A stretch of 64,000 nucleotides of DNA from an uncultured Polyangiaceae bacterium. GTDB lineage: Bacteria; Desulfobacterota; Binatia; UTPRO1. This document shows positions 38,389-63,484 of this stretch, piece by piece. Under the pieces are notes generated by a model. It worked only from the letters and a program-made list of their open reading frames with translations. It ran no database searches and was not told the DNA's origin. Within the stretch, counting starts at the first letter, position 1, and every line of letters begins with the position of its first letter. Both the position numbers and the translations under genes were made by a program. The stretch lies in the NCBI GenBank assembly GCA_964631985.1, contig CAZWAX010000001.1, forward strand, positions 943 to 64,942. Direction: 5' to 3'.

Positions 38389-41300
38389 TCAAAGACTCCC
38401 AGCGTCAGGATCGGGCGTCATGATAGGCCACGGTCGACCGGAGGCAAGATCGGGATGGCGCGGCCCGGCTTCCGGTGAGCCGTACTCATCCCAGATCCGG
38501 TCTACTTGGTTCAGGCAACGCGCGGCTGCGTCCAACGCCCCACCGTCTGTCGTCAGTGCAAGAAGTTTCTCGCGAAGTTCAACGGCAGGGACGGGAACAA
38601 TCGTGAACGCCCCCTTCAAATTCTCGGAAGGTACATGCTGGGTGACCACGCGCCCGATCGCCCGCCGCGAGATGAGAGAGCGCCAACCTCCCTCAAAGCT
38701 GAGTAGAAGTAGTACGCCTTCGGCATCGGGATTCTCCACGACGGCCTCGGCGAGCATTGCTAGGCCCGGCGTTGATGCGCCGTTGCTGAGGAACCCATAG
38801 ACGTGGGCACGCAGCGCAGGATGTGCGTCGAATAACTCGCCGATGTGGCCGGCCATGTGCCAGCGATCGAGGTTCCCGTCCGCAAAGGAACCGCCTGCAG
38901 CCAAGTCCACAAAGCGGCGCGCGGCGGAGAGGGTTCTCCGGCGCGTGACGGCGTCGCGCCACACGTGACTGTCATAGAAGGCGGGACAGGCTTCAGCAAA
39001 AGCAAAGAGCGCGTTTTCAGCGTCAACACCAGGTGCTTCGCCGAAGGCACGGATCATTTCCTCCAAACGATCGGGCCTTCGTTGCTCCTCCGGCAGGGTC
39101 TGAACAACAGTGAGCGCCTCAGCTGGAAAATTCGTGAACGGCAGTAGTCGCAGCCATTCACTGACTTCGTAGCCATCACTCAGGATCCAGCTTTGGGTTC
39201 TGCCAGCCTCCATGACCTCAGCGAGGCCTGTCTTCACGACGCCGATGTCGACGATGTGACCGGACAGCACTTGGTTCAGAAGTAGTGCGGCCCGTAAGCG
39301 GCGTGGTGCGATGGCGATCAGACTTTGAACCGTCGCATCACGCTGGCCATGCGGCAGCCGCGATGCCACGACGCCAAGCGCGAGGCCGAGCTTTTTCCGC
39401 TCTTCCGGCACGCCGTCGGCGATCAGTGGCTCAAGCGCTGCGAAGATTGTCTCCGCTTCCACCGAAGTCGCTGAAGGATTGGCGGCGCGAGCGGCTCTTT
39501 TCTCTTCCACGCGTGAGAAATCCGGACCGCCGAAAACCCGCCTGCTGTTCGGCGGATCGTTCGCCTTCTGCCATCTGGCCGCGAGGACGTGCGCGGCAGC
39601 TTCGCCGAAATGGTCGTCGATAAGATACTCTCGCATCAAAGCGGCTGTCTCCGGAGCGTCGATGGACAGGAACGCGTGCTGGTACTCATTCGTATGCGGT
39701 GTGATGGCTTCGGTCGCGGCTTCGCTGTGGGCTCGCCCACCGGCTGCTTGCGCTTCGGCACGGAAGGCGCGATAGTGGCGGAGGTTGTCGTCCAGCAAGC
39801 GCCTCAACAATGGCAGCAGCGCGATAGAGGGGGCCTGGCTTGCTAGCGTTGCGATGCTAGCCGTCTGCCAGCGCTTCGCGGTACCGGAAGCCAGCATGCG
39901 GTCGCCCCACTCCTGGGCGATTGCCTGAATAGTCGCACGTGAATCAGCGTCGAACGGTCTGCCGTGATCGCCCTCCCCACTTGGATGACGCGAGAGAAGC
40001 CCTGCCAAGCGCGCCATTTGGTCGTTATCGGCTTGCAGAGAGCGGGCATGGATGGCGGCAACGAGACTGGCGCCGCGGGCATGCGCGAGCCGACGCAAAA
40101 GGGTGTGGTAGCGGTCACTTGCGGCTTGGTCGTATGTACCGTCCACATTCAGCCGCGCCCGTGCTTCGTTCAGTGCCTCGATCATGCGGCCGACGGCCAA
40201 CGGTCCGAGCGCGGAAGCCGCGGCTTCTCCGCGGTCATGCGGCCGGGTGGCGTCCATCAGCGCAAGTTCCAGTAGTGCGTCGTCTTCGAGACTGAAACAG
40301 GCTGCAGCGAGAATATCATCGGCTCCGTAGAATAAGGTTCGCCCGGTGCGCACGCGGGTGAGGAGGCCGCTCGCGACAGCACGGGGATAACGCTGGCGCG
40401 CTTCGTAGACGAGATGAACCGCCGCGTCCCGCCCCTCGGTTTCCATCGACCCGATGAAGTCGGCCAGCTCTAAAGCCCGGTCTTCGGCAAAATCCGAGTA
40501 CACGATCGAGTGAAGCCGGTCGTAATCCGAAACTCCTGTCGCGATCTCCCGCTCGCGCGCAGCGGCGAGGCGCTCCTTGACGCGCTCGTCGGGAACGTTG
40601 TGGACGAACCTGTTGCGCGCAACCAGGTCGATGGTCTCGTCGCCAGCGTACCGCAGCACGTCGGCGACGTGTCGATCCGCGCCCCGAAAAGCCAGCGCCT
40701 CAACCGTCGAGACTTGAACTTCAGTCGCGGGATCATCGCTTGCGATAGCGGTCGCGAGATCGAGACCGTCGATGCCGCTGTTGGATGCCATCTCGTGCAG
40801 CAGGACGGTCCGCACCTTGGCCGACAGCCCACAGATCCTCGTCACGGCATCACTCCCGAGGATTGACGGTCGGAACCGGCTGCAGTTGCGCAGCGCCTTG
40901 AGACTCGTCTGATCGTCCTCGTGCGTGATGAGCGGCCAGACCGCGTCAAGGAACTCAGGGCGTCCCGACGCGAGCATAAAACGCAATGCGCGATCCACCT
41001 TGCCCGGCGTATGCCAGCGAGCGACGAGCCCCCGGATTGTTGGGGCGATGGGCGCCCACACTTCCTCCGTCGCCCTGAAGATCATCTCGGCCGCGAGAAT
41101 GGGATCGACTTCGAACGCCGAGAGAATGGCCTTGCCGCACACGGCCTGCTGGTGCGCATCGCTGCGCGCCATACGTTCCACCGCGAAGAGAATGGCTTCT
41201 TCCCATATGGGAAGGTTGAATACTTCAGCCTTCAGCGCCTCGCGGCTCCTCGGATCATCGGCCGCCGCGGTAGTCCGGCGCTCTACGGAGTGAGAGGCAT

Positions 41301-42729
41301 ACCACTCCTGAAACTGCTGGTGCTGGAAAGAGTAGCCCAGCGTGCCGCCCGTGCGGATCAGAACATGATTGCTGGCGAGCACGTCCAGCACGTCGTCCGG
41401 CTGGGACGGGATAGTGATCTGCCCGTCCCCGATCAGCGTTGCCTGGGTTTGAGAGACGGTCCGCCGGGCGTTCGTGTCGGCGATAGACGTGTTCTGTGTC
41501 CGCGTGGCGAACACGGCGAGACACTCCAGATGATCCTGCTGGAAACCATGCACAACGTCGCGCAGCGTCTCGGCGCGACGGGCATCAGTTTCGTGCACAG
41601 TCACGAAGTGCCGCAGGAGTTCCTCCTTGGTCGTTGGGAAGGGCGCGCCTTCAGGAAGGGAGAGCAGTGCGGTGAGATAGAGTGGGATCGTTACGAGCTC
41701 GCGGACACCAGGCGTGCGCCAAGCCTGATCGACGATCCTCAGGCCTGCTTCGCCGCGCATCGCGGCGGCGATCTGCGTTTGCTGCTTTTGGTTGAGCGGC
41801 AGGAGATCGACGCGCATCCCGACGAAAGGAACGTCGAGGGCGTGCTTGCGGGTCGAGACGATGAAGCCGAGCTCAGGTAGCTCCGCCATCAGGCGATCGA
41901 CCTGTACGCGCGCTCGCGTCCGCCCGTCCGGACTCAATTCGTTCCAGCCGTCGAGCAGCAGGACAACACCGGGTTTGGCGGCGACTGCACGGAAGTCGTC
42001 TTCCGATATGGCCTGGAACCCCTGACGAGTGAGGATGGACCCTAGCAGTGACAACGTTTGCGTGGCCCAATCGGCGAGCGGGATGATGATGGGCGTGCCT
42101 CCGGCGTCGGCGATGAGGGCTTGGGCGATCTGGAATAGTGTCGTCGTCTTTCCTGTGCCGGGTCCGGCGACGAGGATTAGATCGTCGAGCGACGTGACGA
42201 CGCGCGCGAGCGCGGTTGTCGTCGCAGGCTGACCAAAGCCTTCTACCTCCAGCGTGAGCGCTACGGCACTGGATGGCCATTTGGTTGTGCGGCGGAAAAC
42301 AGAGAGATCCGCCTCAGCAGCGGCGCGAAGACGATCCGCCGGTTGCCCGACGGCAATAGGCAGAGGCCCACGGGACGCTTCGTTCTGCAACACGCGGCGT
42401 CGAGCGTCGTCTTCCGCTAGCTTCTTCCATTCGCGTAGACGCTCGATGGTGAATTCTGGATCCTTATCGTCGATAGCCTTGCCGTGATTGCGACACATCC
42501 AGATGCCGTTGCTTGCGGAACGGCGTTCCGCGGATGACATGTTTGCGTCACCGCGGGGGCTGCGGTCGGATTCCACGGCGCCGATGATGTGCGCCGCCGT
42601 GCCGAGATTGATTTCACCGCCGACGGTCAGCGCACGACAAGATGGATAGGAGCAAAGCCAGCCCGCGCGCTTAGCGATCTGGGTCTTTATCCGGTCTGTG
42701 AACTCGTCTCTGTTTCTGTTTCCTGGCAT
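38389..42729 (-). CDS. STAND-class NTPase: N-terminal HNH-like nuclease motif, NACHT NTPase module and long C-terminal HEAT/ARM-like repeats (antiviral-STAND/Avs-like architecture)
   Basis: HNH-like segment: C-x2-C (CSYPSC)...AAHII...N-x4-C-x2-H (NGIWMCRNH). Walker A: LILVAGPGTGKTTTL. NACHT-type Walker B: VVLLLDGWNEL. Roughly 900 aa of helical repeats follow. Confidence 0.8.
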   Translation of the reverse strand: MPGNRNRDEFTDRIKTQIAKRAGWLCSYPSCRALTVGGEINLGTAAHIIGAVESDRSPRGDANMSSAERRSASNGIWMCRNHGKAIDDKDPEFTIERLREWKKLAEDDARRRVLQNEASRGPLPIAVGQPADRLRAAAEADLSVFRRTTKWPSSAVALTLEVEGFGQPATTTALARVVTSLDDLILVAGPGTGKTTTLFQIAQALIADAGGTPIIIPLADWATQTLSLLGSILTRQGFQAISEDDFRAVAAKPGVVLLLDGWNELSPDGRTRARVQVDRLMAELPELGFIVSTRKHALDVPFVGMRVDLLPLNQKQQTQIAAAMRGEAGLRIVDQAWRTPGVRELVTIPLYLTALLSLPEGAPFPTTKEELLRHFVTVHETDARRAETLRDVVHGFQQDHLECLAVFATRTQNTSIADTNARRTVSQTQATLIGDGQITIPSQPDDVLDVLASNHVLIRTGGTLGYSFQHQQFQEWYASHSVERRTTAAADDPRSREALKAEVFNLPIWEEAILFAVERMARSDAHQQAVCGKAILSAFEVDPILAAEMIFRATEEVWAPIAPTIRGLVARWHTPGKVDRALRFMLASGRPEFLDAVWPLITHEDDQTSLKALRNCSRFRPSILGSDAVTRICGLSAKVRTVLLHEMASNSGIDGLDLATAIASDDPATEVQVSTVEALAFRGADRHVADVLRYAGDETIDLVARNRFVHNVPDERVKERLAAAREREIATGVSDYDRLHSIVYSDFAEDRALELADFIGSMETEGRDAAVHLVYEARQRYPRAVASGLLTRVRTGRTLFYGADDILAAACFSLEDDALLELALMDATRPHDRGEAAASALGPLAVGRMIEALNEARARLNVDGTYDQAASDRYHTLLRRLAHARGASLVAAIHARSLQADNDQMARLAGLLSRHPSGEGDHGRPFDADSRATIQAIAQEWGDRMLASGTAKRWQTASIATLASQAPSIALLPLLRRLLDDNLRHYRAFRAEAQAAGGRAHSEAATEAITPHTNEYQHAFLSIDAPETAALMREYLIDDHFGEAAAHVLAARWQKANDPPNSRRVFGGPDFSRVEEKRAARAANPSATSVEAETIFAALEPLIADGVPEERKKLGLALGVVASRLPHGQRDATVQSLIAIAPRRLRAALLLNQVLSGHIVDIGVVKTGLAEVMEAGRTQSWILSDGYEVSEWLRLLPFTNFPAEALTVVQTLPEEQRRPDRLEEMIRAFGEAPGVDAENALFAFAEACPAFYDSHVWRDAVTRRRTLSAARRFVDLAAGGSFADGNLDRWHMAGHIGELFDAHPALRAHVYGFLSNGASTPGLAMLAEAVVENPDAEGVLLLLSFEGGWRSLISRRAIGRVVTQHVPSENLKGAFTIVPVPAVELREKLLALTTDGGALDAAARCLNQVDRIWDEYGSPEAGPRHPDLASGRPWPIMTPDPDAGSL

Positions 42730-46145: not shown

Positions 46146-48020
46146 TCAGGGCTCGATGTTCCAGATGCCCATCATCCCGATGTCCTCGTGCTCGACGATG
46201 TGGCAGTGAAACACGGTCTTCCCCGCGTGATCCATGACCGGAACGAGCAGCGTGATGCTGCCGCCCTTGGGGACGATGACCGTGTCCTTGAGCCCGGGCA
46301 CGCGGGTGTAGAGGTCGGCGTAAGTCGCGAACGCGGGATCGGGACCGTTGGCCGACAGAACCTGCGCGGAGTTGACGTGCTGGTGCCAGGGGTGGTCCAT
46401 CCCGGTCTGGTTCACTATCTCCCAGACCTCGTAGGTGCCCACCTTCGAGTCGTGTTGGTACGCGCTCACGGTGCCATCGGCCATCTCGTCGAAGCTCACG
46501 CCGTTGATGGTTCCCCGGCCCATGAACATGCCGAGGACGAACCGCGTCCGCGGCAACGAGCCCGCGTCGATGGTGAGCCGCCTCGCCGCGGGGTCTACCT
46601 GGGCCGGGAGGACGTCGCCCATTTCCGCTCCTGCGTCTTCGAGCGTGAGGAGCGTCACCTGTGCCGAGGGAGCGCCTCCGAATCCGGGCATGCCGCCCAT
46701 CATCCCCATGCCTCCGCGGTCGTACGGCAGCGCGAGCAGCCGGAAGTTGCCGGCAGCGGGGGACGCCTGGACGAGCAAGTCGAGCCGCTCGGCGGGCGCC
46801 ACCAGGATCTCGCTTACGGAGTACGGCCGGTCGAGCAGACCTCCGTCGGTACCGATGACGTTGAGGGAATGCCCCTCGAGGCTCAGCCGGTAGAAGCGCG
46901 CCGTGCTGGCGTTGAAGATGCGCCACCGCTGCACTTGCCCGGGCCGGATCGCGAGAACGGGGTTCACCTGGCCGTTCACCATCACCAAGTTGCCCTCCTT
47001 CCCCATCACGTAATCCAGGATCGAGTCGTAGGGGGCCGGGCCTCCGCCCGAGAGCGAAATATCCTTGAGCACGAGGAGGTGGGTCTCGTACGCAGCCAGC
47101 GGGCTACCCGGCTCGTCGGCGACGTCGATGGGGCCGATCATGCCGCCCCAGATCTGCTCGGCGACCGCGCCGTGCTGATGCGGGTGGTAGAGCCCCATCG
47201 AGCCAGCGGGTTGCAGCGAAAGGTCGTACTCGTAGTCGAGGCTTCCTCCGCCGGCAGCGACCGACCTGAAGACGTCGTCCCCGGGCGTACCGTTCGGGTT
47301 GGTTGCCGGCGTGACATGCAGGCCGTGCGCGTGAAGATTCGTCACGAACCGCGGATGGCCGAGGAGGTTCGTGGCCCCACTGGCGGGGAGAGCGTTCGTG
47401 AAGTGCAGCCGCAGCAGGTCACCGCGCCTCGCCTGGATGACGGGGGCCACGAAGCCGCCGCCGTAGGTCAGGAACGTGGCCGTGGAGCCGCCGAGGTCGT
47501 CGGCGGCAGTTCGGGCCTCGATCGTGACGCCAACGACGTTGCCGTTCCGTGTGCTCGGCGCCACCGGGGGATCAGCGAATGCCGATCCTGGGGGCGGATC
47601 GGACGGCGGATGGCCCCTCCCCGCGTAGGCATGTGGCGCGTCACAATCTCCGCCCGGGCCAAAGAACGAGCCATCTCTGACGTAGCAACATGACTGAGGG
47701 CACTGGCCCTTTACCAGAAGACCGGCCGCGGCGCGCAAGCTGTTGACCCCGTCGGTGACGGTCATATGCCCGTCACCGTTCATGTCGCACGACGCCATGT
47801 AGTAGACGTCCGCGCCATCGCGCAGCTCGCAGGTGCTTGAGAGACCCGCGGCTGCTCGCAGCATCTGCACCCCGTCCGTGACGGTGACGGCTTGCCGCGA
47901 GTCGCCGCTGGTATGCCCGCACGCGGGCATCATGAAGGATCCTGGGTGGTGCGCTGCCGCTGATGTGGCCAACGTGGCACCGATCAGCACCGTGAACCAC
48001 GAAAGGACTCTCTTTTTCAT
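46146..48020 (-). CDS. Multicopper oxidase (three-domain laccase/CueO-like) with two N-terminal dockerin-like repeats
   Basis: GAGGAG RBS, signal peptide MKKRVLSWFTVLIGATLATSAAA. Cu-ligand motifs HAHGLH, HPHQHG, HPWHQH and HCHIVEHEDIGMMG. N-terminal TVTDGVQMLRAAAGL and CDMNGDGHMTVTDGVNSLRAAAGL repeats. Confidence 0.85.
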   Translation of the reverse strand: MKKRVLSWFTVLIGATLATSAAAHHPGSFMMPACGHTSGDSRQAVTVTDGVQMLRAAAGLSSTCELRDGADVYYMASCDMNGDGHMTVTDGVNSLRAAAGLLVKGQCPQSCCYVRDGSFFGPGGDCDAPHAYAGRGHPPSDPPPGSAFADPPVAPSTRNGNVVGVTIEARTAADDLGGSTATFLTYGGGFVAPVIQARRGDLLRLHFTNALPASGATNLLGHPRFVTNLHAHGLHVTPATNPNGTPGDDVFRSVAAGGGSLDYEYDLSLQPAGSMGLYHPHQHGAVAEQIWGGMIGPIDVADEPGSPLAAYETHLLVLKDISLSGGGPAPYDSILDYVMGKEGNLVMVNGQVNPVLAIRPGQVQRWRIFNASTARFYRLSLEGHSLNVIGTDGGLLDRPYSVSEILVAPAERLDLLVQASPAAGNFRLLALPYDRGGMGMMGGMPGFGGAPSAQVTLLTLEDAGAEMGDVLPAQVDPAARRLTIDAGSLPRTRFVLGMFMGRGTINGVSFDEMADGTVSAYQHDSKVGTYEVWEIVNQTGMDHPWHQHVNSAQVLSANGPDPAFATYADLYTRVPGLKDTVIVPKGGSITLLVPVMDHAGKTVFHCHIVEHEDIGMMGIWNIEP

Positions 48021-48682
48021 TGCTCCTCTATCCTCGACAATCAATCACGTGGTGAACGGCAACGCCCCTGAGCCCAGAGTCCCTTCCTGCCGGTTCGACA
48101 ATCTCGTCAGATTCGCGCTGCGTGGCTCGACATTCCTTGCGCCAACTGCTTCGGGGTGTATTCCCAGTGATGCGATTCCCAGTCGTGGCAACGAGAACGG
48201 GGCGCCGAGCCCCCCCCATGCGAATGCTCTGAAAGCTGGGCGCCACCTATGCCGCGATAGCACCCCGGCGGCGTCCCTGAGAGGCCCGGTGAGGCTTCCG
48301 CACTATGGCGATATTTCAGCGACTCGTCGCGTGGATCATCGACCAGATGCCCAGAGCATTGGTCGAACTCCAACGTGACTAGCTCTTCCCCATCCGCCAG
48401 CTTCACAATTCGCGTAACCGGCATGCCCAATCAAAGAAGCAAGCGTCATGCCCATCGAAACAATACGTACAATTGAATCGCGGCCCAAAGCTTCTCATGC
48501 AAATTTCGCGACGTCGGCTTCGCGCGCGCGGTCGGCATCGAGGGCGATTTCCGAAAGTCACGAATCCGATGACGCATCCGTGAGAATCCAGTCGTTCACG
48601 GCCCTGACATTGCACGCTTGAAGGGCGGCACGCCGTTCGCTTCTCGACTGTAGGTGGCTTCTCGAAAGGAGGTGAGAACTGG

Positions 48683-54352: not shown

Positions 54353-56338
54353 CTAGTCTGCTGTTACACGAACGATCCGCCCGACCGACGGAACGTCATC
54401 AGCCATCGCGAAGAGAATGTAGTGGCCGAGCGGCAGAATGTTAGGATCGGACGGCAACGTGAGCTCGGCGTTCGGACCCGCTTGCGTCACAGGAAGGACG
54501 AGACGGCGCGGCACCCCGCCGTCGACCCAATGCGTGTGCGCGCCCGTGCCGACTAGCACCGCTGATGTAATTTCCGTCGCCGGGAACACGGGGAATGTGA
54601 GCACGGTGCCCCGCGCGGCCTCGGAGCTTACTGCGCCAATCACGGGACGAACGCCGCGGAAAAGATACGGCGGCGAGTACGCTTCGATGTCCGACGATGT
54701 GGGTCCGATCTGAAACTTGATTAGCGTTCCGCCGGTGGTGAGCACTCTCCCATCGGGAACGAGAAGGGTAATGGCGTGGTACTCACGAAACTGGGCCATG
54801 TCCGCAACACGCCGCCAGCGGTTCGCGCGGGCGTTGTATAGATCGGTCCAGCGCACCACTCCGAGCACGTCTGGAACAGGTGCGGGAGTGGGTGCATCCC
54901 CCGCTGCGACGAGCACCGAGCCATCCGGAAGCTGGACGACCTCCGGCCGGCTGCGCGGGAGAGCCGAATTCGCCGTGAGGCTCCACATGCCGGTTTGGGG
55001 ATCGTAGATTTCACCCATGACACCGCCGGCACCGGGGCGAATCCCAATCGCGAGCGCACGACCGTCGTCGAGCATGACGAGCGAGTGGTCGGAGTGGTCC
55101 GGCCAGCCACGGTTTGGCTGCACGAATCCGCCCGTCATCCGCCACACGCCCGTGACTGGGTCGTAGAGCTGGGGGAATGCCCACGTCGCAAGCACATCGC
55201 CGGTGTAGAGCAGCGCCGCCGGCGGATACTCGGCCGGCGCAAGCATCGAACCCGTGTAGGTCCAGGTTTCTGTGCTGAGGTCGAATCGTTCCGCGGTATC
55301 TGTCCGCTCGGCATTCGGTGCCGTACCGCCGCCCATCACCAAGAGCGAGCCGTCGGCAAGGCGCGCGAGTCCCGGATACCAGCGCCCGACGCCGAGCTGC
55401 AGGTTGGGCATGAGCTCCCAAGAGCCGTCAGACCGGTACGATTTCACCCACGGGACGGCGTTTCGAAACGAGCCCGGATCAGTGGGAGTCTGACCGCCGA
55501 TAAAGACAATCCGGTCGTCTGCGAGGAGCGTCGCGGCGGTACAGCCCTGCTCGGAAGGCGACGAGGCGGGAAAGCTTTTTGCGCCGGTCAGCGGGTCGAA
55601 CACGACCGGGTCGACGGTGTCGTGGCAGTAGAATAGGCGACCGTCGGCCATGAGAATCGCGATGTCCGTAGCGTCGAAGAGCTCGGGCGACGTGTCTCCC
55701 ACGATCGCCCATGAGCCTGGGTGCGACTCCGGAGTAACGGTGATCGCGCCGGGGCTCCGCCCAGGGACGAGCAGTTCACGTTCGATGTAGTCGTAGCCTT
55801 CGGCCGCGACACCGAGGCGGTAGGCACCGGGCGGAACGTTGGCGAGTGTCCAGCGGCCGGACATCGCGGAACGCAATTCGCGAAAAAAGGATAGGTCGCC
55901 CTTGAAGATGGTCACACGGGCGTTCGCGACGCCGCTCGCTCCGGCGCGCACGCGACCGGAGAGGCGCTTGGGCGTAGGGCCAACCGTAACCGTCTGGCGC
56001 GCAGTGCGCGTACGACCGTCTGCTAGGGTCACTGTGACGTCCCGCGCGCCGACGGCGGCATTCGCGGCGACATTGAGCTTCAGCTGCAAGCGGTCCGCGG
56101 ATTTCCACCGTACTTCAGTGACGGTGATGCCACCGCCGGCGACACCGACTGCGGACACCGCCGCGGCGCTCGTCCCGAAGCCGGCACCGAACACCGTCAC
56201 TGTCGAACGCTTACCAGGACGGACAGCGGACGGCTTCGTATAGGCTACGACAAGCGGCGTCGACGCCGCTTGAGTGACGGCCGGGGCGATGATCGCCAGT
56301 GCGACGACGAGAGCGAGTATCAACCTGAAGACACGCAT
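54353..56338 (-). CDS. Galactose-oxidase/glyoxal-oxidase-like protein (Kelch beta-propeller plus C-terminal DUF1929-like domain) with an N-terminal Ig-like region
   Basis: GAGGAGG RBS, signal peptide. Repeated W/GG-containing Kelch-like blades (...LLVMGGG..., ...VLVAAGD...). C-terminal ...LPLGHYILFAMADDVPSVGRIVRV is typical of DUF1929. Confidence 0.6.
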   Translation of the reverse strand: MRVFRLILALVVALAIIAPAVTQAASTPLVVAYTKPSAVRPGKRSTVTVFGAGFGTSAAAVSAVGVAGGGITVTEVRWKSADRLQLKLNVAANAAVGARDVTVTLADGRTRTARQTVTVGPTPKRLSGRVRAGASGVANARVTIFKGDLSFFRELRSAMSGRWTLANVPPGAYRLGVAAEGYDYIERELLVPGRSPGAITVTPESHPGSWAIVGDTSPELFDATDIAILMADGRLFYCHDTVDPVVFDPLTGAKSFPASSPSEQGCTAATLLADDRIVFIGGQTPTDPGSFRNAVPWVKSYRSDGSWELMPNLQLGVGRWYPGLARLADGSLLVMGGGTAPNAERTDTAERFDLSTETWTYTGSMLAPAEYPPAALLYTGDVLATWAFPQLYDPVTGVWRMTGGFVQPNRGWPDHSDHSLVMLDDGRALAIGIRPGAGGVMGEIYDPQTGMWSLTANSALPRSRPEVVQLPDGSVLVAAGDAPTPAPVPDVLGVVRWTDLYNARANRWRRVADMAQFREYHAITLLVPDGRVLTTGGTLIKFQIGPTSSDIEAYSPPYLFRGVRPVIGAVSSEAARGTVLTFPVFPATEITSAVLVGTGAHTHWVDGGVPRRLVLPVTQAGPNAELTLPSDPNILPLGHYILFAMADDVPSVGRIVRVTAD

Positions 56339-56526: not shown

Positions 56527-56886
56527 CTAGCGCCGATACGGGTCGTGGAACTCTTCGTGTTGCTGGTTGAGATCCTGGTGAACCGCGCCGTGCTCGGCGT
56601 TTCGCTCCCGGTGGCCTTCTTCGTGAGCGCGGTCCAATCGCCGATGAACACGGCGATGCTGCTTACGCGTCATCGGCTGCGAATGCACAGCGCGATGGGC
56701 ATCGTTCAAGTCGCGGTGTTCGGCGTTGTGCTGCTGCCCCAGATCCTGATGGGTGTCCTGGTGGTCGGCGTTGAGATCCTCGTGAACGGATTCATGCTCG
56801 GGGTCGTGCGCGGGAACGGCGCCCGGAAGAGCAACGAATGCGCTCAGGACGAGGGCGAGAAAATACGCATGGTGTCGGCGAAGCAT
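56527..56886 (-). CDS. Secreted His-rich repeat protein (about 119 aa)
   Basis: Signal peptide MLRRHHAYFLALVLSAFVALPGAVPA, then repeated H-x-DLN-x2-H / HQDxxxxH units (HEDLNADHQDTHQDLGQQHNAEHRDLNDAHRAVH...HGAVHQDLNQQHEEFH). Confidence 0.6.
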   Translation of the reverse strand: MLRRHHAYFLALVLSAFVALPGAVPAHDPEHESVHEDLNADHQDTHQDLGQQHNAEHRDLNDAHRAVHSQPMTRKQHRRVHRRLDRAHEEGHRERNAEHGAVHQDLNQQHEEFHDPYRR

Positions 56887-57243
56887 TTGTATACCCTGTC
56901 CTTCGTTCAGTCTGACGTGCTTACGTTTTTTGCCAAGCTCGAGAGCGAGCTCACGAGTAGTTCTTCTCGCGGCCGCGCGTTTCCAGGACCCATGCGCCGT
57001 ACAACGGAGTCGAGGCGCGGCGGTTGCGGCCGAGCCGTAACGCACGCAGTGGCTCAACTGCGCTTTAGGTCTCGGGAGAACTACGCCGTCGAAACAATCA
57101 GAGGGCGCTGGCCTCAGTCCGAGCAACGGTCGTCGCTCGTACAAGGGTCAGTCCCTACTGCCCTTCCCCTGCGTTTCGCAGTACGCGGCACCGGCGAAGT
57201 GGCGCGTTCGGCGCGGCTACTCGCCGCGTCGAAGTCGCACGCC

Positions 57244-58425
57244 CTAAAGCGGGTTCGTTTCAGGACCGGAGCCGCACTCGTAGACTCGGATCGTCCACTG
57301 ACTTCCAGAGGTGAGGGTTGTGGTCGTAATCGCTTGGATGGGTGTCGAGATTCGGGCGAGCAGTCGCCAGATGTGAGAGGCCTTCGGATTCGTCCCCATC
57401 GAGACGACGACAACTCCACCGCTATTTCGCAGAAGTGCGTGCGCTCGCCGAAACACACCCTCTACTGACGCGAGCGGGAAGTAATAGAGAACTTCGTTGA
57501 GGACGACCACGTCGAAGCGCTTGGCGGGTTGAAAGTCGGCGAATGACCCGGTGTAGAAAGAGCGGTCGACGCCTTCACCGAAATCCCGCAGACAGTCCGC
57601 GACAACTGCGGGCGCGATATCCAGCCCGGTGTAGGACGACACAGCTCCCTTCAGAAGCGGATACAGTATCGCGTGTCCGCAACCGACGTCGAGCACGTCG
57701 GCGCCGAGCGGGAAACGATCGCGAACAATGCCGCTGATGACGTAGTGACGAGGCCGTTGAGGGAGGGAACGCAGGAACTCCCACTCGCCGTTCGCATACA
57801 TCCGGTTCCACCGCGTGGGACTGCTCGCGACGAAAAGATTCCATGCGTTCGAGACTTCATGTCTGAGTGAGGTCGCCGGCGCCGGTGAATCGAGAAAGCT
57901 CAAGGTAGACGTCCGGGCCACTCTGAAGGCAACGGCGCCGAAGAGGACTCCGGTGATCAACTCGGCCGCCGTGTGGTGCCGGATGACGTATGCGGACCCG
58001 ACGATGAGGGCTAGCGCAGCCGCAAGTAGTAGCCGCTGTGCCCCACGAACTTCGATGAATACTACTGAGCTCGCCAGGACCACGCTCGCCGTTTGGAAAC
58101 ATGTTGCATAGGGCGTTTGTCGCGGCGCCCCGATCAGCACGTAGACGGCGCTTCCGATTGTGAGAAGCAGCAGACCTACGGAGAACCGCCACAGAGCGCC
58201 CGAGTGCGAGCGGAGCGGGAAAACGAGAAAGGGCAGGAGATTCAATGCATATCCGGACAGGTTCACTAGCCTCCACACCGACCTACCGGGTGGCCCGAGG
58301 CCTGCGAACACATCTAACGGCCGGTGAATCGCGTGCTCAGCATGGCTCGCGGTTTCGAAGCCGAATAGCGTCGCTGTCAGACCGACGGCAAAAATCGCCA
58401 GCGGCGGCGTTGCTCGAGGCCTCAC
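57244..58425 (-). CDS. Membrane protein with a PAP2-like N-terminal region fused to a class I SAM-dependent methyltransferase domain
   Basis: GTG start immediately after the upstream stop. Multiple TM helices. VLDVGCGHAILYPLL (motif I) and ...VVLNEVLYY... . The PAP2 assignment is tentative. Confidence 0.55.
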   Translation of the reverse strand: MRPRATPPLAIFAVGLTATLFGFETASHAEHAIHRPLDVFAGLGPPGRSVWRLVNLSGYALNLLPFLVFPLRSHSGALWRFSVGLLLLTIGSAVYVLIGAPRQTPYATCFQTASVVLASSVVFIEVRGAQRLLLAAALALIVGSAYVIRHHTAAELITGVLFGAVAFRVARTSTLSFLDSPAPATSLRHEVSNAWNLFVASSPTRWNRMYANGEWEFLRSLPQRPRHYVISGIVRDRFPLGADVLDVGCGHAILYPLLKGAVSSYTGLDIAPAVVADCLRDFGEGVDRSFYTGSFADFQPAKRFDVVVLNEVLYYFPLASVEGVFRRAHALLRNSGGVVVVSMGTNPKASHIWRLLARISTPIQAITTTTLTSGSQWTIRVYECGSGPETNPL

Positions 58426-58794
58426 CTATTTCGTCGTTGAGTCGCTGTGGCTAGGGGACGGCAAAGGCGGTGCAGGTGTCTCCAATGGCACGACAACCCC
58501 GAGCATTACGTCGGTGGCAAGCAAGTTGCCGCTTCGCAGTCGAGACCCGTGCACCGTGACCTGCATGCCTGGCGTTAGGTCAGCCTGTGCGGCTGGTCCG
58601 TCCCAACGGCGGAACTTGGTACTATCGTTGATCTTGACGGTTGCGTTGCCACCATCGGGAGTTTTCATCACGAATTCGTTTTTCCCGACGGTGGTCACTT
58701 CTCCGTCAAAGGTCGTTTCGTTCTGCTGAGTAGGTCCGTGAGCCAAAGCCACGGCCGCCGGAAGGATGAAAGCAAGTAGTATCGTCGCACGCAT
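58426..58794 (-). CDS. Small periplasmic protein (DUF5666-like beta-fold)
   Basis: Signal peptide MRATILLAFILPAAVALAHG. ...TVKINDSTKFRRWDGPAAQADLTPGMQVTVHG... pattern also occurs in the protein at 63537. Confidence 0.55.
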   Translation of the reverse strand: MRATILLAFILPAAVALAHGPTQQNETTFDGEVTTVGKNEFVMKTPDGGNATVKINDSTKFRRWDGPAAQADLTPGMQVTVHGSRLRSGNLLATDVMLGVVVPLETPAPPLPSPSHSDSTTK

Positions 58795-58997
58795 GTTGAG
58801 TTCCTTTTCGCCATTAGCCCACAAAGAGCGGGCAAGTGGATGTCCTGGACGTGAGACGGCGCGGCGATCTATGGCGCGCCAGCGTCAAGCATCGGAGGTA
58901 ACGCGTGGAACGCGGAAGGTCTCACACCGTTCGGTTCAGCAGCCCACTAGGACTCGGAACCGGCGTGGAGTCCGAAGACGTCTCGGGGAGAGACCTC

Positions 58998-59423
58998 TCA
59001 GATCAGAAAGATATGGTGGAGAAGGTGTTTCCGCTGCGGGGAGCCTCTGGGGGCGTACGTTCGCTTAACTAGGGACGCCGACGCGAGCCATGGCGACCGC
59101 TGAGATGCTGAAGCGATCGGCAAACGAACCGAGTCGAGAACGGGACCAGTCGAACTTCCCGGGTCGCTAGAGGCCACAAGTTGCCAAGCATCACAGTGCC
59201 GACAAGTGTTAGTGCTCCGCTCAGCGGGTGAAGATTGGCGATTCTCGTCAGCCGTCGTCGTCGCGGGACGGCCGTGACAGCTCGCGACTGCGGACGGTGA
59301 GGCGAGGTTCTTTTCCGGTCGGGAAAGTTCGAAGCCGCACCGGCACAGCGCTGACATGAGTACGAGCGAGGCCGTCAGCATGGTCACTAGGGTGCGGCGC
59401 AGTGTCATGCTGCGGGTGATCAT
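58998..59423 (-). CDS. Small Cys/His-motif secreted protein (CzcI/CusF-neighbourhood type); paralogue of 59601..59987
   Basis: MITRSMTLRRTLVTMLTASLVLMSALCRC...CHG...CRHC...HLLHHIFLI. Start uncertain (no SD). Confidence 0.45.
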   Translation of the reverse strand: MITRSMTLRRTLVTMLTASLVLMSALCRCGFELSRPEKNLASPSAVASCHGRPATTTADENRQSSPAERSTNTCRHCDAWQLVASSDPGSSTGPVLDSVRLPIASASQRSPWLASASLVKRTYAPRGSPQRKHLLHHIFLI

Positions 59424-59600
59424 GGGTCTCTGTCGGATGCCTAGCAAGACGACGCCTGCGTTTCCAACGAAGTGCCTGTTGTCACGTAAGAGCTTATGGG
59501 CGGCGGCTCCTGGTCTCCTCGTGGGCGTGAAAGGCGCGAGATTGCTCACCGAATGACGGGTCTTGCCAGCTGCCTCTGAAGAGGCGCATGATCGCGAAGC

Positions 59601-59987
59601 ATGCGGTATCGGCAAGTCATTGGGACCATCGCGATCGTCACCTTAGCGGTGACCTCGGTCCTCTGTGGCTGCAAGTCGAGTTTTGCCGCGTCGACCTCCG
59701 CCGCCGCGGCGGAAGGCTGTCACGGCGGGCATCAGTCGAAGTCGAGCGATTCGAGCTCGCACGAACATCAGAAGAATTGTCAGCACTGCAAGCACGCACA
59801 GTTCCTTGAGAGTAAGGACGCCGGCAAGTTGGCCGCTGCACCTGTTCTTCAGCCGCTCGCCTGGGCGTCTAGTAACTTCCTTGTTGCCGTTCCGCCGATG
59901 GTGTTCGTGACGTCTCGTCAACGGATGCCCTGTTCGCGGGCGGCGCCCCCACCACTTCACCTCCTGAATCAAGTCTTCCTGATCTGA
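59601..59987 (+). CDS. Small lipoprotein-like Cys/His-rich protein, immediately upstream of the TolC-like gene; paralogue of 58998..59423
   Basis: MRYRQVIGTIAIVTLAVTSVLCGC...CHGGHQSKSSDSSSHEHQKNCQHCKH...HLLNQVFLI. Confidence 0.5.
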   Translation: MRYRQVIGTIAIVTLAVTSVLCGCKSSFAASTSAAAAEGCHGGHQSKSSDSSSHEHQKNCQHCKHAQFLESKDAGKLAAAPVLQPLAWASSNFLVAVPPMVFVTSRQRMPCSRAAPPPLHLLNQVFLI

Positions 59988-60348
59988 ACCCCTCTCCCAA
60001 CGGTGCGCAGAAGGCGCGCCAGGGCTGAGCTGCGTCCGCCATTCTATTTCCTCGCGGACGCCATGTTTTCCTCCGGCCATCGAGGATGAGGGGTGATGAG
60101 AAGACTATCGTTTGTACTTTTGATGCTGCCGCTTGCGAGCTGTGTCGCAGCGGTCCAGATGCCGCCGCTCTCGGCGAACCATCCGGCGAGCCCGGCCGCT
60201 GAAGAAGCGCCGGTTCCCGCATTGTCGCCGACGCTCGCCCTGCCAGAGCGGGCTGGCGACTCGCGCGGTGCGATCAAGTCGCGCGAATCAGTCCGAGGAG
60301 ATGAGCCCACAACGCCCCAAGGCGATCACAAGGGCCATGGAGGCGGGC

Positions 60349-61782
60349 ATGCTCACTAAACCGCTTCTTGGTCTCGTGCTTGTCGCTTTGACGACCGGAG
60401 GTTGTGCGGCCGTGAATGCACGGTTGGGACTCCCGGACGTAGAGCGGCTGGTTGCCGAGCGTGCGAACGCTTCCGTCTCGTGGCCCGAGACCGCGGAGGA
60501 GCGCGCGCAGGTCGAGCACACCGTTCAAGGGATTCTTGGGGAAGATCTCACGGTTGAGAGCGCGGTTCGGCTCGCGCTTCTCCACAACCGGAACCTGCAG
60601 GCCGTCTACCAAGAGCTTGGCATTGCTCAAGCCGAGCTCGTTCAGGCGGGTCTGCTTCCGAACCCGGTGCTAAGCGCGAATGTGCGCTTCGGGCTTGGCC
60701 CATCCGGGACGGGGGCTGAGCTTGGGCTCGTTCAAGAGCTCATCAATCTCTTGCAGATTCCTCTCAAGAAGCGCGTCGCAGCGGCCAATCTGGAACGGGC
60801 GAAGGCCGAGGTTGCGGGGGCCGTGCTCGACCTCGTCTTCGATGTGAAAGCTGCCTTCTACGGGCTCCAAGCGGGACTGCAGATGCTCGAGCTTCGGCGG
60901 AGTGTTGCGGACGCGACGGGATTCTCGCGCCTCGTCGCGGAACGGCAGCACGAGGCTGGAAATATCTCGGATCTCGAGGTGCGGACCGAACAGGCGCTCC
61001 ACGAAGAATCGAAAGTTGAGCTGGCGATCGCAGAAGCCGCCGTGCTCGAGGATCGCGAGACGCTCAACACCCAGCTTGGGCTCTGGGGTGGACAGACCAC
61101 ATGGTCCATCGGCGGGCGCCTACCGAGTCTTCCGCGCGAGGAGTCGAGCGGGAAGGGCCTCGAGAGCCGTGCCGTGGCTCAGCGATTGGACCTTGTTGTC
61201 GCTCGCACGCAAGGCCTCTCCCAGGTCGCGGAGCTTCGATTGACCCGCTTCTACGGCCTCCTCCCTTCAGGCTCGACGGGAGTGGCCTCCGAACGTGAGA
61301 CTGAAGGCGGCTGGTCGCTTGGACCCTCCGTCAATGTTCCGCTTCCGATCTTCGATCAGAATCAAGCGCTGATCGCGAGTAGCGCCGCCCGACTGCGGGC
61401 GAGTGAGGAACGAGTTGCTGCACTCGCCGTAGAGATTCGCGCCGATGTGCGTCGGGCCCGGATTCGTCTCGAAGCAGCACGGCAGCGAGCCGCCTACTAC
61501 GAGGCGGTTTTGCTGCCGCTCAAGAGCGATGTCGTTGAGGAGACGCTGCTTCAGTACAACGCGATGCAGGTCGGGCCCCTTCAACTGGTCCAGGCGAAGC
61601 GCGACCAGATTGATGTGGGGCGCCGCTACATCGAGACACTGGGTGAGTATTGGGCGGCCCGCACGGAGCTCGAGCGTGCCGTAGGTGGCGAGCTCACGCT
61701 TACGGACGGGCTTCCCGCGGCAGTCGAGACACCCGCGATTCCCGCGCCGCAAACGGGGTCGCAGCATCATCACGGAGGTTGA
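60349..61782 (+). CDS. TolC-family outer-membrane efflux protein (CusC/CzcC-like)
   Basis: GGAGG RBS 5 nt before the ATG. Lipoprotein-like N-terminus MLTKPLLGLVLVALTTGGC. Two repeats of the outer-membrane-factor helical/beta pattern. The Arg-rich N-terminal extension of the track ORF is spurious. Confidence 0.8.
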   Translation: MLTKPLLGLVLVALTTGGCAAVNARLGLPDVERLVAERANASVSWPETAEERAQVEHTVQGILGEDLTVESAVRLALLHNRNLQAVYQELGIAQAELVQAGLLPNPVLSANVRFGLGPSGTGAELGLVQELINLLQIPLKKRVAAANLERAKAEVAGAVLDLVFDVKAAFYGLQAGLQMLELRRSVADATGFSRLVAERQHEAGNISDLEVRTEQALHEESKVELAIAEAAVLEDRETLNTQLGLWGGQTTWSIGGRLPSLPREESSGKGLESRAVAQRLDLVVARTQGLSQVAELRLTRFYGLLPSGSTGVASERETEGGWSLGPSVNVPLPIFDQNQALIASSAARLRASEERVAALAVEIRADVRRARIRLEAARQRAAYYEAVLLPLKSDVVEETLLQYNAMQVGPLQLVQAKRDQIDVGRRYIETLGEYWAARTELERAVGGELTLTDGLPAAVETPAIPAPQTGSQHHHGG

Positions 61783-61789
61783 GGGAATC

Positions 61790-63484
61790 ATGGCAAGCGA
61801 GAAGGATCAGAAGATTGCGACCTGGGCTCGACCTATGTCGCGCCGTCAAGCGATCGCGACTGGTGCGGGTGCGTTGGTAGCAGGCACGAGCCTACTTGGT
61901 GGCGTTCGCGAGGCGCGTGCGGAAACGACGGCGCCTTCAGAGACGCCGAGCTTCGAGCAGTATCCGTTCGGACGGTCCGTGGATGCCAGTGGCACGCGGT
62001 ATTCGGACGCACACTGGGATCTGCCCGGCGAACCCGGACGCGACTACACGCCGGTCGTCACACCAAACGGTTGGACCCTCCCCTATCGGGTCGTCGACGG
62101 GGTCAAGGTCTTCGAGCTCGTCGCCGAAGAGGTGGAGCACGAGTTCGCTCCGGGACTGAAAGCGAAGTGCTGGGGTTTTAACGGCGGCGTACACGGCCCG
62201 ACCATCGAAGCGGTCGAGGGCGATCGCGTGCGCATCTACGTTACGAACCGGCTTCCTGCGCCGCACGCTGTGCACTGGCACGGGATTCTTCTTCCAAACG
62301 GCATGGACGGTGTGGCGGGCCTCAATCAACCGACGATCCGGCCGGGCGAGACCTTCCGATACGAGTTTACTCTCCGGCAGCACGGCACGCACATGTACCA
62401 CAGCCATCACGACGAGATGACGCAGATGGCGCTTGGTTCCATGGGGTTGTTCATCATCCATCCGCGGTCTCCTGGTGTCCGCCCTGATCGGGACTTCGCG
62501 CTGCTCATCAGCGAGTGGCAGATCCGAGTCGGCACCGCTCGGCCTAATCCGAACGAGATGACGGACTTCAACATCTTCACGTTTAACGCGAAGGCCTTCC
62601 CGGGTACGGCACCGCTCGTCGCAAAACTCGGGGACAAGGTTCGGATGCGGTTTGCGAGCGTTGCCGTGATGGACCATCACCCGATCCATCTCCACGGGTA
62701 CCAGTTCCCGATTGTTGCAACCGATGGCGGAACAATTTCGCCCTCCGCACGGCATATGGAGACCACAGTTCTGGTGGCGGTCGGGCAGTCGCGAATGATC
62801 GAGTTCACCGCTGACGAGCCTGGCGACTGGGCGATGCACTGTCACATGACTCACCACGTGATGAACCAGATGGGCGACGATTTCCCGAACATGATTGGCG
62901 TGAATCCAGAGGGGCTCGACGAGAAGGCTCGCGCGCTTCTGCCTGGCTACATGAGCATGGGCCACGACGGCATGGGCGACATGGCCGAGCACATCGAATC
63001 GGGCCACATGCCGGTGCCGAAGAACAGCATTCCGATGATCGGCGGCGCTGGCCCGTTCGACTACATCACCATGGGCGGCCTCTTCACGGTCTTCAAAGTC
63101 CACCCGGATCTCACGAGCTACGAGGATCCAGGCTGGTACAAGAATCCGCCGGGAACGGTCGCCGACCGCGCGAGCGGCGAGGCGCTGCGTCGCGATGGCG
63201 TGAAGTTCGATGGGAGCTCTGCGCCGCGAGCGCCGGCTGCGGCGCTTCGGTCTCACAAGCTCGCGGCTCCTCCGCCAGGTCAATACCGCGGGCGCCTTCC
63301 GACGAAGCGCGGAAACGGTGGCGGTCATGCCGGGCACAGCATGCCGAAGTCGACCACGAAAGCGCCGAAAGCCGCACCGGCTTCGGACGGGACTTACACG
63401 TGCCCGATGCACCCGGAAGTCGTGTCGAAGAAGCCCGGCGTCTGTCCCAAGTGCGGCATGCGGCTCACTCGGCGAGGAAACTGA
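61790..63484 (+). CDS. Multicopper oxidase (CopA/CueO-like) with a Tat signal and a C-terminal CxxC heavy-metal-binding tail
   Basis: SRRQAIATGAGALVAGTSLL (twin-Arg). HWHGI, HSHHDE, HPIHLHG and HCHMTHH Cu sites. C-terminal YTCPMHPEV...CPKCGM. Confidence 0.85.
   Translation: MASEKDQKIATWARPMSRRQAIATGAGALVAGTSLLGGVREARAETTAPSETPSFEQYPFGRSVDASGTRYSDAHWDLPGEPGRDYTPVVTPNGWTLPYRVVDGVKVFELVAEEVEHEFAPGLKAKCWGFNGGVHGPTIEAVEGDRVRIYVTNRLPAPHAVHWHGILLPNGMDGVAGLNQPTIRPGETFRYEFTLRQHGTHMYHSHHDEMTQMALGSMGLFIIHPRSPGVRPDRDFALLISEWQIRVGTARPNPNEMTDFNIFTFNAKAFPGTAPLVAKLGDKVRMRFASVAVMDHHPIHLHGYQFPIVATDGGTISPSARHMETTVLVAVGQSRMIEFTADEPGDWAMHCHMTHHVMNQMGDDFPNMIGVNPEGLDEKARALLPGYMSMGHDGMGDMAEHIESGHMPVPKNSIPMIGGAGPFDYITMGGLFTVFKVHPDLTSYEDPGWYKNPPGTVADRASGEALRRDGVKFDGSSAPRAPAAALRSHKLAAPPPGQYRGRLPTKRGNGGGHAGHSMPKSTTKAPKAAPASDGTYTCPMHPEVVSKKPGVCPKCGMRLTRRGN

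Follow-up and report, generated by a model that had tools for sequence, protein, structure and literature searches.

Head-to-head paralogs of a small Cys/His protein family as probable copper-responsive leaders of two divergent operons in an uncultured Binatia-related bacterium

The window analysed here, a stretch of 64,000 nucleotides of contig CAZWAX010000001.1 from an uncultured Polyangiaceae bacterium, carries two small, divergently oriented genes for Cys/His-motif proteins which, to judge from their sequences, are a head-to-head pair of anciently duplicated paralogs. We consider it probable, with some reserve, that both encode copper-responsive, cis-acting exported leader proteins of the CutF/CruR/CopL class, each guarding its own copper operon. 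The plus-strand gene precedes genes for a lipoprotein, an outer-membrane efflux protein (OEP) and a multicopper oxidase, the minus-strand gene precedes genes for a DUF5666 protein and a methyltransferase. To our knowledge, nascent exported copper-sensing leaders are a recently discovered principle with two studied prototypes only, CutF and CruR. With this pair, the class would be found also in an uncultured relative of Candidatus Binatia from a soil lineage; the pair represents a subfamily that is missed by current Pfam and NCBIfam models and often skipped by gene callers.

Paralogy, conservation and the shared 5' block

Both genes, which an earlier note on this DNA had proposed, are present in the list of open reading frames (ORFs):

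59601 to 59987, plus strand: putative leader gene, 128 residues (ORF list)
58998 to 59423, minus strand: paralog, 141 residues from ATG 59423 or 136 residues from ATG 59408 (ORF list, homologs)

As listed, the minus ORF has 205 residues and a TTG start; homologs and alignment favour ATG 59423 or ATG 59408, and the latter (MTLRR...) is the more probable start because the second Met of the minus protein is the one that matches the first Met of the plus protein in the alignment. Both N-termini are positively charged and lead into some 16-20 hydrophobic residues. The plus protein continues from its N-terminal hydrophobic helix with LCGC, CHG, CQHC, SRAAPPP and the tail LHLLNQVFLI-stop, the minus protein with LCRC, CHG, CRHC, PRGSPQRK and the tail HLLHHIFLI-stop. 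That the two are related through a hydrophobic segment, LCxC, CHG, CxHC and a common C-terminus had been suggested before, with 25% identity named as the limit below which the idea should be dropped; BLASTP aligns them end to end with 27% identity (E 4e-8), and the positions of LCxC, CHG, CxHC and the C-terminal HLLxx[IV]FLI-stop correspond. Among all ORFs of the window, phmmer finds this protein type in these two copies only. With an identity of 27%, the duplication must be old. Its inverted, head-to-head character, also claimed earlier, is borne out by the protein alignment, by islands of DNA identity and by a promoter-like block that both genes share.

A search of 5.8 billion proteins returned six close homologs of the plus protein (56-98% identity) and two of the minus protein (74-88%), and an exhaustive profile search yielded 25 relatives with the same motifs; the family alignment used below (A2) comprises 26 proteins. 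Few further sequences, none of them Pfam-annotated, came from a third protein search, a word-indexed one that used the family alignment. No relatives were confirmed in species-representative genomes (one-genome-per-species contigs, searched with peptide patterns), the plus protein had no tblastn match in plasmids, and a PDB sequence search gave no relative. In ten close homologs the positions of LCxC, CHG, CxHC and the C-terminal tail are invariant.

For comparison, loci and contigs were fetched (L001 and following) and scanned by hidden Markov models (HMMs) and tblastn. The pair is adjacent in L005/L008, L007, L009, L010 and L011, and parted by three genes (Csp, DUF4142/DUF305 and DUF305) in L001. 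L006 is of the same type as L001, with the minus type alone seen there; the plus type stands alone in L002-4, L013 and L012, in the last of these behind a CDF transporter gene. Even where the pair is split or single, each copy retains its own downstream genes. The ratio of nonsynonymous to synonymous substitution rates (dN/dS) is 0.12-0.29 for the plus gene, whose ORF is intact and of constant length in every locus, and 0.23-0.61 for the minus gene, whose ORF is intact in five loci; these values point to purifying selection on both genes. The suspicion that only one of the two ORFs might be conserved in related genomes is thus not borne out.

In public gene calls the minus-type paralog is missed or miscalled (uncalled, or called as a 79- or 182-residue product), as at L001 5131-5553 (-), L007 3261-3683 (-) and L010 5407-5832 (-), and the subfamily is therefore under-represented in protein databases.

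Each gene is preceded by a promoter-like block:

59560 to 59600, plus strand: -35 TTGCCA (59563-59568), 18-nt spacer, -10 CATGAT (59587-59592) (promoter scan)
59409 to 59450, minus strand: GTCTTGCTAG, 17-nt spacer, CATGATC (conservation, inverted repeat I24)

The minus -35 element, TTGCTA, is the reverse complement of 59442-59447 and its -10 element that of 59419-59424. The two blocks align base for base, with the shared pattern GTCTTGC[C/T]AG, 17-18 nt, CATGATC, 5-7 nt, GCATG. Upstream of the plus gene the block is invariant in six loci, three of which have unrelated DNA farther upstream, and the minus block is kept in five loci. Only in some loci does the ATG within CATGAT share the frame of the gene, which shows that the block is not kept for a coding function. 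In both genes the start codon lies 8-10 nt past CATGAT (the plus -10 element ends 8 nt before ATG); if the block is read as -35/-10, nearly leaderless mRNAs would start at the aligned Met residues. A possible operator, the dyad GCCTCT-GA-AGAGGC, lies in the spacer of the plus block. The copies have in common the 5' block and also the bases next to the stop codon on its 3' side, so the duplicated unit evidently ran from the promoter-like block through the ORF to the first post-stop bases.

Fixed spacing, RNA structure and proposed function

Across the 26 family members C22, C24, C60, H62 and C63 are invariant and P116 is nearly so. Their C-termini follow the pattern PP(x)3LL(x)3[C/V]x[L/F]L[I/V]-stop, and conservation along the protein is highest in the final residues before the stop codon. 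From the last Cys of CxHC to the C-terminus there are 63-68 residues (median 65, standard deviation 1.5); the distance from CxHC to the PP motif is looser (47-58 residues, standard deviation 2.2), and that from CxC to CxHC is also more variable than the distance to the C-terminus. The sequence between CxHC and the C-terminus can barely be aligned across the family. In the AlphaFold2 model only a helix at residues 2-22 is confident, with a predicted local distance difference test score (pLDDT) of 91, while the remainder has a pLDDT of about 50-55 and shows no folded domain. Such a precise ruler to the end of the ORF through unstructured sequence is what a co-translational sensing device would require. 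A reading of LCGC as a lipobox was rejected because the residue ahead of the second Cys is variable across the 26 sequences (G, V, A, L, M, R, P or T), and V, L, M, R and P do not suit a lipobox.

Behind the plus gene, folding predicts a helix that masks the ribosome-binding site (RBS) of the next gene:

59979 to 59997, plus strand: 5' arm of the RBS-masking helix, made up of CUG AUC (the two final codons), UGA (the stop codon) and ACCCCUCUCC (minimum free energy and alignment consensus folds)
59998 to 60081, plus strand: structured spacer with two conserved hairpins (GGUGCGC...GCGCGCC and GCGUCCGC...GCGGACGC) and a local UCCUC anti-Shine-Dalgarno (folds)
60082 to 60101, plus strand: 3' arm of the helix, composed of the Shine-Dalgarno GAGGA, UGAGGGGU and the start codon (GUG 60093 or AUG 60096) (folds)

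In the minimum free energy fold of every plus-type locus, the post-stop segment ACCYCUCUCC pairs with the Shine-Dalgarno and start region of the lipoprotein gene, and the consensus helix adds the last two codons (CUN AUC, bulged UGA and ACCYCUCUCC with GGA-U-GAGGGGU-GAUGAG). This helix closes the 105-nt spacer, for which the fold z-score is -2.8; the probability that 59988-59997 is unpaired is 0.08. Duplex energies in the plus subfamily range from -20 to -27 kcal/mol, which corresponds to the 0.8-7% tail of random segments, and the spacer diverges at 55-70% of the synonymous rate. The helix gains independent backing from relatives that are unrelated at the nucleotide level. In L032, where a leader 27% identical to the plus protein is followed by the gene for a lipoprotein with a heavy-metal-binding domain (HMBD), a stretch from the last codons through the stop codon to 12 nt beyond it pairs with the GAGUGGAGC region a short way ahead of the start codon (-22.6 kcal/mol, 0.3% tail). 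The same helix topology is predicted in L033 (4.9% tail) and in operons of an Allorhizobium and a Burkholderia plasmid described below.

The minus gene is followed by a longer spacer:

58795 to 58997, minus strand: conserved structured spacer of 203 nt, with a hairpin that spans the stop codon (folds)

Column identity in this spacer is 86%, which compared with synonymous sites is barely higher against L007 and moderately higher against L001. The consensus fold keeps only the stop-spanning hairpin. In L007 and L010, the post-stop segment GAGUUCUCUC pairs perfectly with the Shine-Dalgarno region of the DUF5666 gene, GAGGGAACUC (-22.6 kcal/mol, 0.3% tail). An intrinsic terminator scan returned nothing, and a search of 58300-60500 against Rfam with E up to 1 gave no match. 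The spacer is mildly C-rich (C 34% versus G 28%), and by analogy with CruR a Rho-dependent mechanism is possible for the minus copy.

In Rhodobacter capsulatus, the copper sensor CutF (cutFOG operon) is exported during its translation, and stalling at its C-terminal PPP melts a stem-loop masking the cutO Shine-Dalgarno (PMC9973294; bioRxiv 10.1101/2025.02.05.636593). In the operational definition of Ozturk et al. (2023), CutF-like proteins have a signal peptide and fewer than 150 residues, carry PP among the 15 C-terminal ones and are encoded less than 1000 nt ahead of a gene on the same strand; the commonest neighbours of this class are OEP genes, and its characterised relatives act in cis only and are undetectable as proteins (PMC9973294). 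Set against this definition, the plus protein (128 residues, spacer 105-108 nt) has its PPP at positions -12 to -10, and the minus protein (136-141 residues, spacer 203 nt) is likewise short and followed by a close gene but has no PP in its last residues. In common with CutF, the plus protein is small and putatively exported, contains several Cys including C-x(2-3)-C, carries PPP near the C-terminus and is encoded by the first gene of a copper-detoxification operon with a multicopper oxidase, and a stem-loop masking the next Shine-Dalgarno is computed for it. Unlike CutF, which has CxxxC, the family has CxHC with two intervening residues, an extra invariant CxC at the end of the hydrophobic segment and a conserved hydrophobic tail of ten residues (LHLLxxVFLI) past PPP; the next gene codes for a small lipoprotein, followed by the OEP, whereas the oxidase comes next for CutF. 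Moreover, the host is Binatia-like and not a member of the Pseudomonadota, and the family is known from sequence alone.

CruR (Bp2923) of Bordetella pertussis, the DUF2946 prototype, is encoded by a copper-responsive upstream ORF with CXXC and a C-terminal RAPP arrest motif at fixed spacing, and works via Rho-dependent termination that is released by copper (PMC9426467). The family resembles CruR in its putative N-terminal export signal, its CXXC (CQHC in the plus and CRHC in the minus protein, invariant in 26), its R-A-x-P-P-type motif, the fixed spacing of these motifs, its first place in copper operons and the long intergenic spacer. The ruler, however, is about 13 residues longer: 65 residues separate CxHC from the C-terminus compared to 52 in CruR, 49 residues separate the CXXC-type motif from RAAPPP in the plus protein compared to 45 to RAPP, and 10-12 residues instead of three follow the proline motif. 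The minus protein has RGSP in place of RAPP, and the genes downstream serve efflux and oxidation in the window but TonB-dependent uptake for CruR.

CopL is a Cys/His-rich small regulatory ORF that acts in cis upstream of copAB in Xanthomonas and Stenotrophomonas. The family shares with it the layout of a small Cys/His ORF upstream of a multicopper oxidase gene, and the syntenic Burkholderia leader, ending in ...RPPRCLLV, resembles the PP...C.LLI tail of the wider family; neither window protein, however, matches CopL_fam (NCBIfam NF033807, cut-off 40 bits). Two of the 26 relatives match CopL_fam weakly (E 2.8e-3, sub-threshold), and the Burkholderia leader reaches 34.4 bits with CopL_fam and 22 bits with DUF2946, the latter about equal to the score of the plus protein. 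A comparison with DUF2946-type proteins, recommended in the earlier note, proved a good lead: the plus protein matches Pfam DUF2946 (PF11162) over model positions 8-117 of 117, below threshold (20.4 bits, E 9e-4, threshold 23.7), and the model end falls on its RAAPP. DUF2946 also matches nine of the 26 relatives, all sub-threshold, and does not match the minus protein. Both characterised leaders, CruR and CutF, are assigned to DUF2946.

The designation CzcI-like, in contrast, found no support. CzcI of Cupriavidus metallidurans pMOL30 (czcNICBA) is likewise small, with a signal peptide, a His-rich stretch, CxxCH and RAPDRP near the C-terminus, and is encoded immediately upstream of the OEP gene czcC; its spacing and C-terminal tail are unlike those of the family. 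Homology between CzcI and alignment A2 was not detectable with hhalign (probability 0.5%); the general layout alone is shared. CzcI itself matched no Pfam family.

In the mechanism that we propose, the nascent plus chain would enter the Sec translocon via its N-terminal hydrophobic segment, and CxC, CHG and CxHC would reach the periplasm with the ribosome still on the last codons, the stop codon lying at a constant distance of about 65 residues from CxHC. Copper binding would then alter the rate at which the ribosome clears the RAAPPP...LLxxVFLI-stop end. A ribosome at this end would melt the helix in which the Shine-Dalgarno and start region of the lipoprotein gene is paired with the two final leader codons, the stop codon and the 10 nt behind it, and translation of the lipoprotein-OEP-multicopper oxidase operon would follow. 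The minus copy would presumably govern the DUF5666-methyltransferase operon via its 203-nt spacer, either by masking the RBS, as the folds of L007 and L010 suggest, or by terminating transcription in the manner of CruR.

Several observations weigh against this proposal. With regard to class membership, the window proteins pass no Pfam or NCBIfam model at its curated cut-off, and hhalign aligns the Burkholderia leader with the family at only 50% probability over 15 columns (the H..H..C..C motif); sequence thus leaves homology to the CutF/CruR/CopL superfamily likely but short of proof, and the class argument is carried mostly by architecture and synteny. With regard to the RNA, the helix energy of the window itself lies only in the 1.6-7% tail of random segments, the alignment contains one-sided G-U changes and no double-sided compensatory changes in the helix, and the helix is weak in L002 and L030. 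The minus copy has SPQRK here and SPRPK in relatives, without a PP motif, and an RBS-masking helix was looked for and not found behind it in the window, L001 and L006. In the plus gene, PPP stands 10 codons ahead of the stop codon, and a ribosome paused on PPP would fall short of the helix; pausing at or near the stop codon must therefore be assumed, and such near-termination pausing would fit the ruler being tightest to the C-terminus. Finally, a dN/dS of about 0.2 over the whole length is also compatible with a stable functional protein.

The last point leads to the alternative that survives best, namely that the proteins bind copper as stable accessory proteins acting in trans, located in the periplasm or anchored in the membrane, for instance as a chaperone or buffer for the OEP or multicopper oxidase (as CzcI is loosely regarded), and that the pairing of the 3' end with the RBS reflects ordinary translational coupling. 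The invariant Cys/His motifs do look like ligands, purifying selection extends along the entire ORF, the clusters are rich in copper-binding proteins (Csp, DUF305, HMBD and multicopper oxidase), and arrest is predicted only. Against it stand the AlphaFold2 model, which shows no folded domain outside the N-terminal helix, the poor conservation between the motifs at a length that is yet fixed to the stop codon within about 1.5 residues, and the last pre-stop residues as the best conserved ones. In addition, the gene always lies immediately upstream on the same strand with a structured spacer of 100-200 nt, and the characterised relatives are those cis-only leaders that escape detection as proteins (PMC9973294). 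We therefore regard stable accessory proteins as a possible but rather doubtful explanation. The two roles, leader and stable accessory protein, are mutually compatible.

Beyond the assignment as leaders, the conserved post-proline tail (...PPxxxLLxx[VI/C]x[FL]LI-stop) together with the ruler of 65 +/- 1.5 residues to the stop codon might define a new kind of arrest peptide. In such a peptide, a periplasmic metal signal at CxC/CxHC would reach a termination-paused ribosome that covers an anti-Shine-Dalgarno segment starting one base past the stop codon, and a pair of a PPP-containing and a PP-less protein would allow a single common control region to set separate copper thresholds or read-outs for two operons, of which one might, for example, be unmasked for translation and the other be subject to transcription termination. 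This is speculation, and we think it improbable as a whole. In any case, the longer precise motif-to-stop spacing, the post-proline tail and the PP-less paralog offer natural variants for dissecting the mechanism.

The inverted match at the outer ends

The 3' ends of the two genes had been described as near-identical terminal inverted repeats, and it had been considered that the whole 1-kb unit might be a small mobile or palindromic module bounded by them. An inverted 30-nt match does exist at both outer ends, and its pattern occurs at these two sites only within the window (0 expected by chance). The arms, however, are identical at 23 of 30 positions (77%), and the nearly identical part is confined to the last 12 nt (TTYCTGATCTGA). 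Their mismatches are either synonymous third positions (CTT/CTC, CTC/CTG, TTT/TTC) or replaced residues (H/N, H/Q, I/V), and the match stops at the stop codons of both genes. This codon-patterned divergence identifies the match as the coding of a conserved peptide and not as a transposon end. The full alignment of the units reveals further islands of DNA identity at the CHG codons (GCTGTCACGGC), the CxHC codons (TTGTC.GCACTG), the C-terminal tail and the shared 5' promoter-like block, which we read as the footprint of selection on an old duplicate. Neither a transposase nor a further copy in the 64 kb was found, plasmids gave no match, the two halves stand apart, single or separated by three genes in related contigs, and paralogs at 27% identity imply an old duplication. 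A mobile module is thus highly improbable, and the case illustrates how a C-terminal peptide conserved between divergent paralogs can, through its codons, be mistaken for transposon ends.

Even though high-GC DNA yields many long spurious ORFs and the minus ORF is often missed or miscalled in public gene calls, we can practically dismiss the idea that one or both ORFs are non-coding chance frames, as both are intact, of constant length and with dN/dS <1 at every locus, no frameshifts or stops were seen in orthologous loci, and the profile search recovered 25 relatives with these motifs.

Downstream operons and gene neighbourhood

The genes that follow the pair on either side are:

60093 to 60359, plus strand: small lipoprotein gene, 87-88 residues, lipobox LASC, His-rich C-terminus GDHKGHGGGHAH; overlaps the start of the OEP gene (ORF list)
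60337 to 61782, plus strand: TolC-like outer-membrane efflux protein, about 481 residues (Pfam OEP, E 8e-28)
61790 to 63484, plus strand: multicopper oxidase with C-terminal HMBD (Pfam Cu-oxidase_3, Cu-oxidase_2, Cu-oxidase and HMBD; NCBIfam copper_res_A), start coordinate inferred from homologs of 562-565 residues
58426 to 58794, minus strand: DUF5666 protein gene, first in line behind the minus leader (Pfam DUF5666, E 8e-9)
57244 to 58425, minus strand: membrane-anchored methyltransferase dependent on S-adenosylmethionine, next in the minus operon (Pfam Methyltransf_23/25/11)

These annotations show small Cys/His proteins heading a metal-efflux/oxidase operon; the earlier note's placement of the plus gene directly upstream of the TolC-family gene needs correction, given that the 88-residue lipoprotein gene (60093/60096-60359) stands between them. 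Across loci the plus operon has the order small protein of 82-87 residues, OEP (476-481 residues in homologous loci), multicopper oxidase with HMBD, DUF5666-like protein and cytochrome c. The small gene follows the leader in L001, L002-4, L005/L008, L007, L011 and L013; in L012 none is called, and its start region is nonetheless conserved. The minus operon consists of the DUF5666 protein, the membrane methyltransferase and further genes (a multicopper oxidase and CopB in L001). The DUF5666 gene lies behind the minus paralog in L001, L005, L006, L007 and L010, and the DUF5666-methyltransferase order is kept in L001, L010 and the P0008 contig.

Behind leaders of this kind a small gene recurs as the first target (window 60093-60359 (+), L034 2324-2551, L035 2195-2494, L032 1676-2014 and L033 1882-2271). 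Its product usually has a lipobox, often a His-rich C-terminus or HMBD, and an N-proximal PPL..NHPA or GPDHPA-like motif, and matches no Pfam family. In operons that contain an OEP gene (window, L034 and L035), the stop of the small gene overlaps the OEP start.

With the multicopper oxidase of the window as query, plasmid operons of the same order were retrieved. On pAtS4a of Allorhizobium ampelinum, a hypothetical protein of 128 residues ending in ...LHRPPNI is followed by a 75-residue lipoprotein, TolC and copper oxidase, with Csp and DUF305 genes divergent from the leader as in L001. On the Burkholderia contaminans plasmid NZ_CP090645.1 (L035 1687-2106), an unannotated ORF of 139 residues ending in ...ERPPRCLLV precedes a 99-residue protein, TolC and copper oxidase; the PLSDB gene table lists no gene at this leader ORF. 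The window and proteobacterial plasmids thus have in common a module in which the leader is followed by small lipoprotein, TolC and multicopper oxidase.

The minus-strand gene string continues past the methyltransferase with a 205-residue protein of unknown family (56527-57144 (-)) and a Kelch/galactose-oxidase-like protein with CarboxypepD_reg (54353-56338 (-)). Because galactose oxidases are copper radical enzymes, the latter may be part of the same copper regulon, and the 205-residue gene may belong to it as well. A second multicopper oxidase gene is located at 46146-48044, with no other CutF-like ORF seen upstream of it.

The GC content of the window falls from about 0.70 (1-22000) to about 0.62-0.64 (24000-64000), which may mean that the copper-resistance cluster belongs to an island gained by horizontal transfer. 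Other genes of this possible island encode a NACHT-type STAND protein (38389-42729), a Ser/Thr kinase (31673-33034) and the second multicopper oxidase. In L004 (1-4423), a Piwi-domain protein, a CHAT-domain protein and a phage-type integrase are encoded a few kb from the plus-type homolog, which suggests that the copper genes there lie beside a defence or mobile island. With respect to the host, a penicillin amidase of 1269 residues encoded in the window is 77-82% identical to proteins of metagenome-assembled genomes labelled Candidatus Binatia, 'Polyangiaceae UTPRO1' and Deltaproteobacteria.

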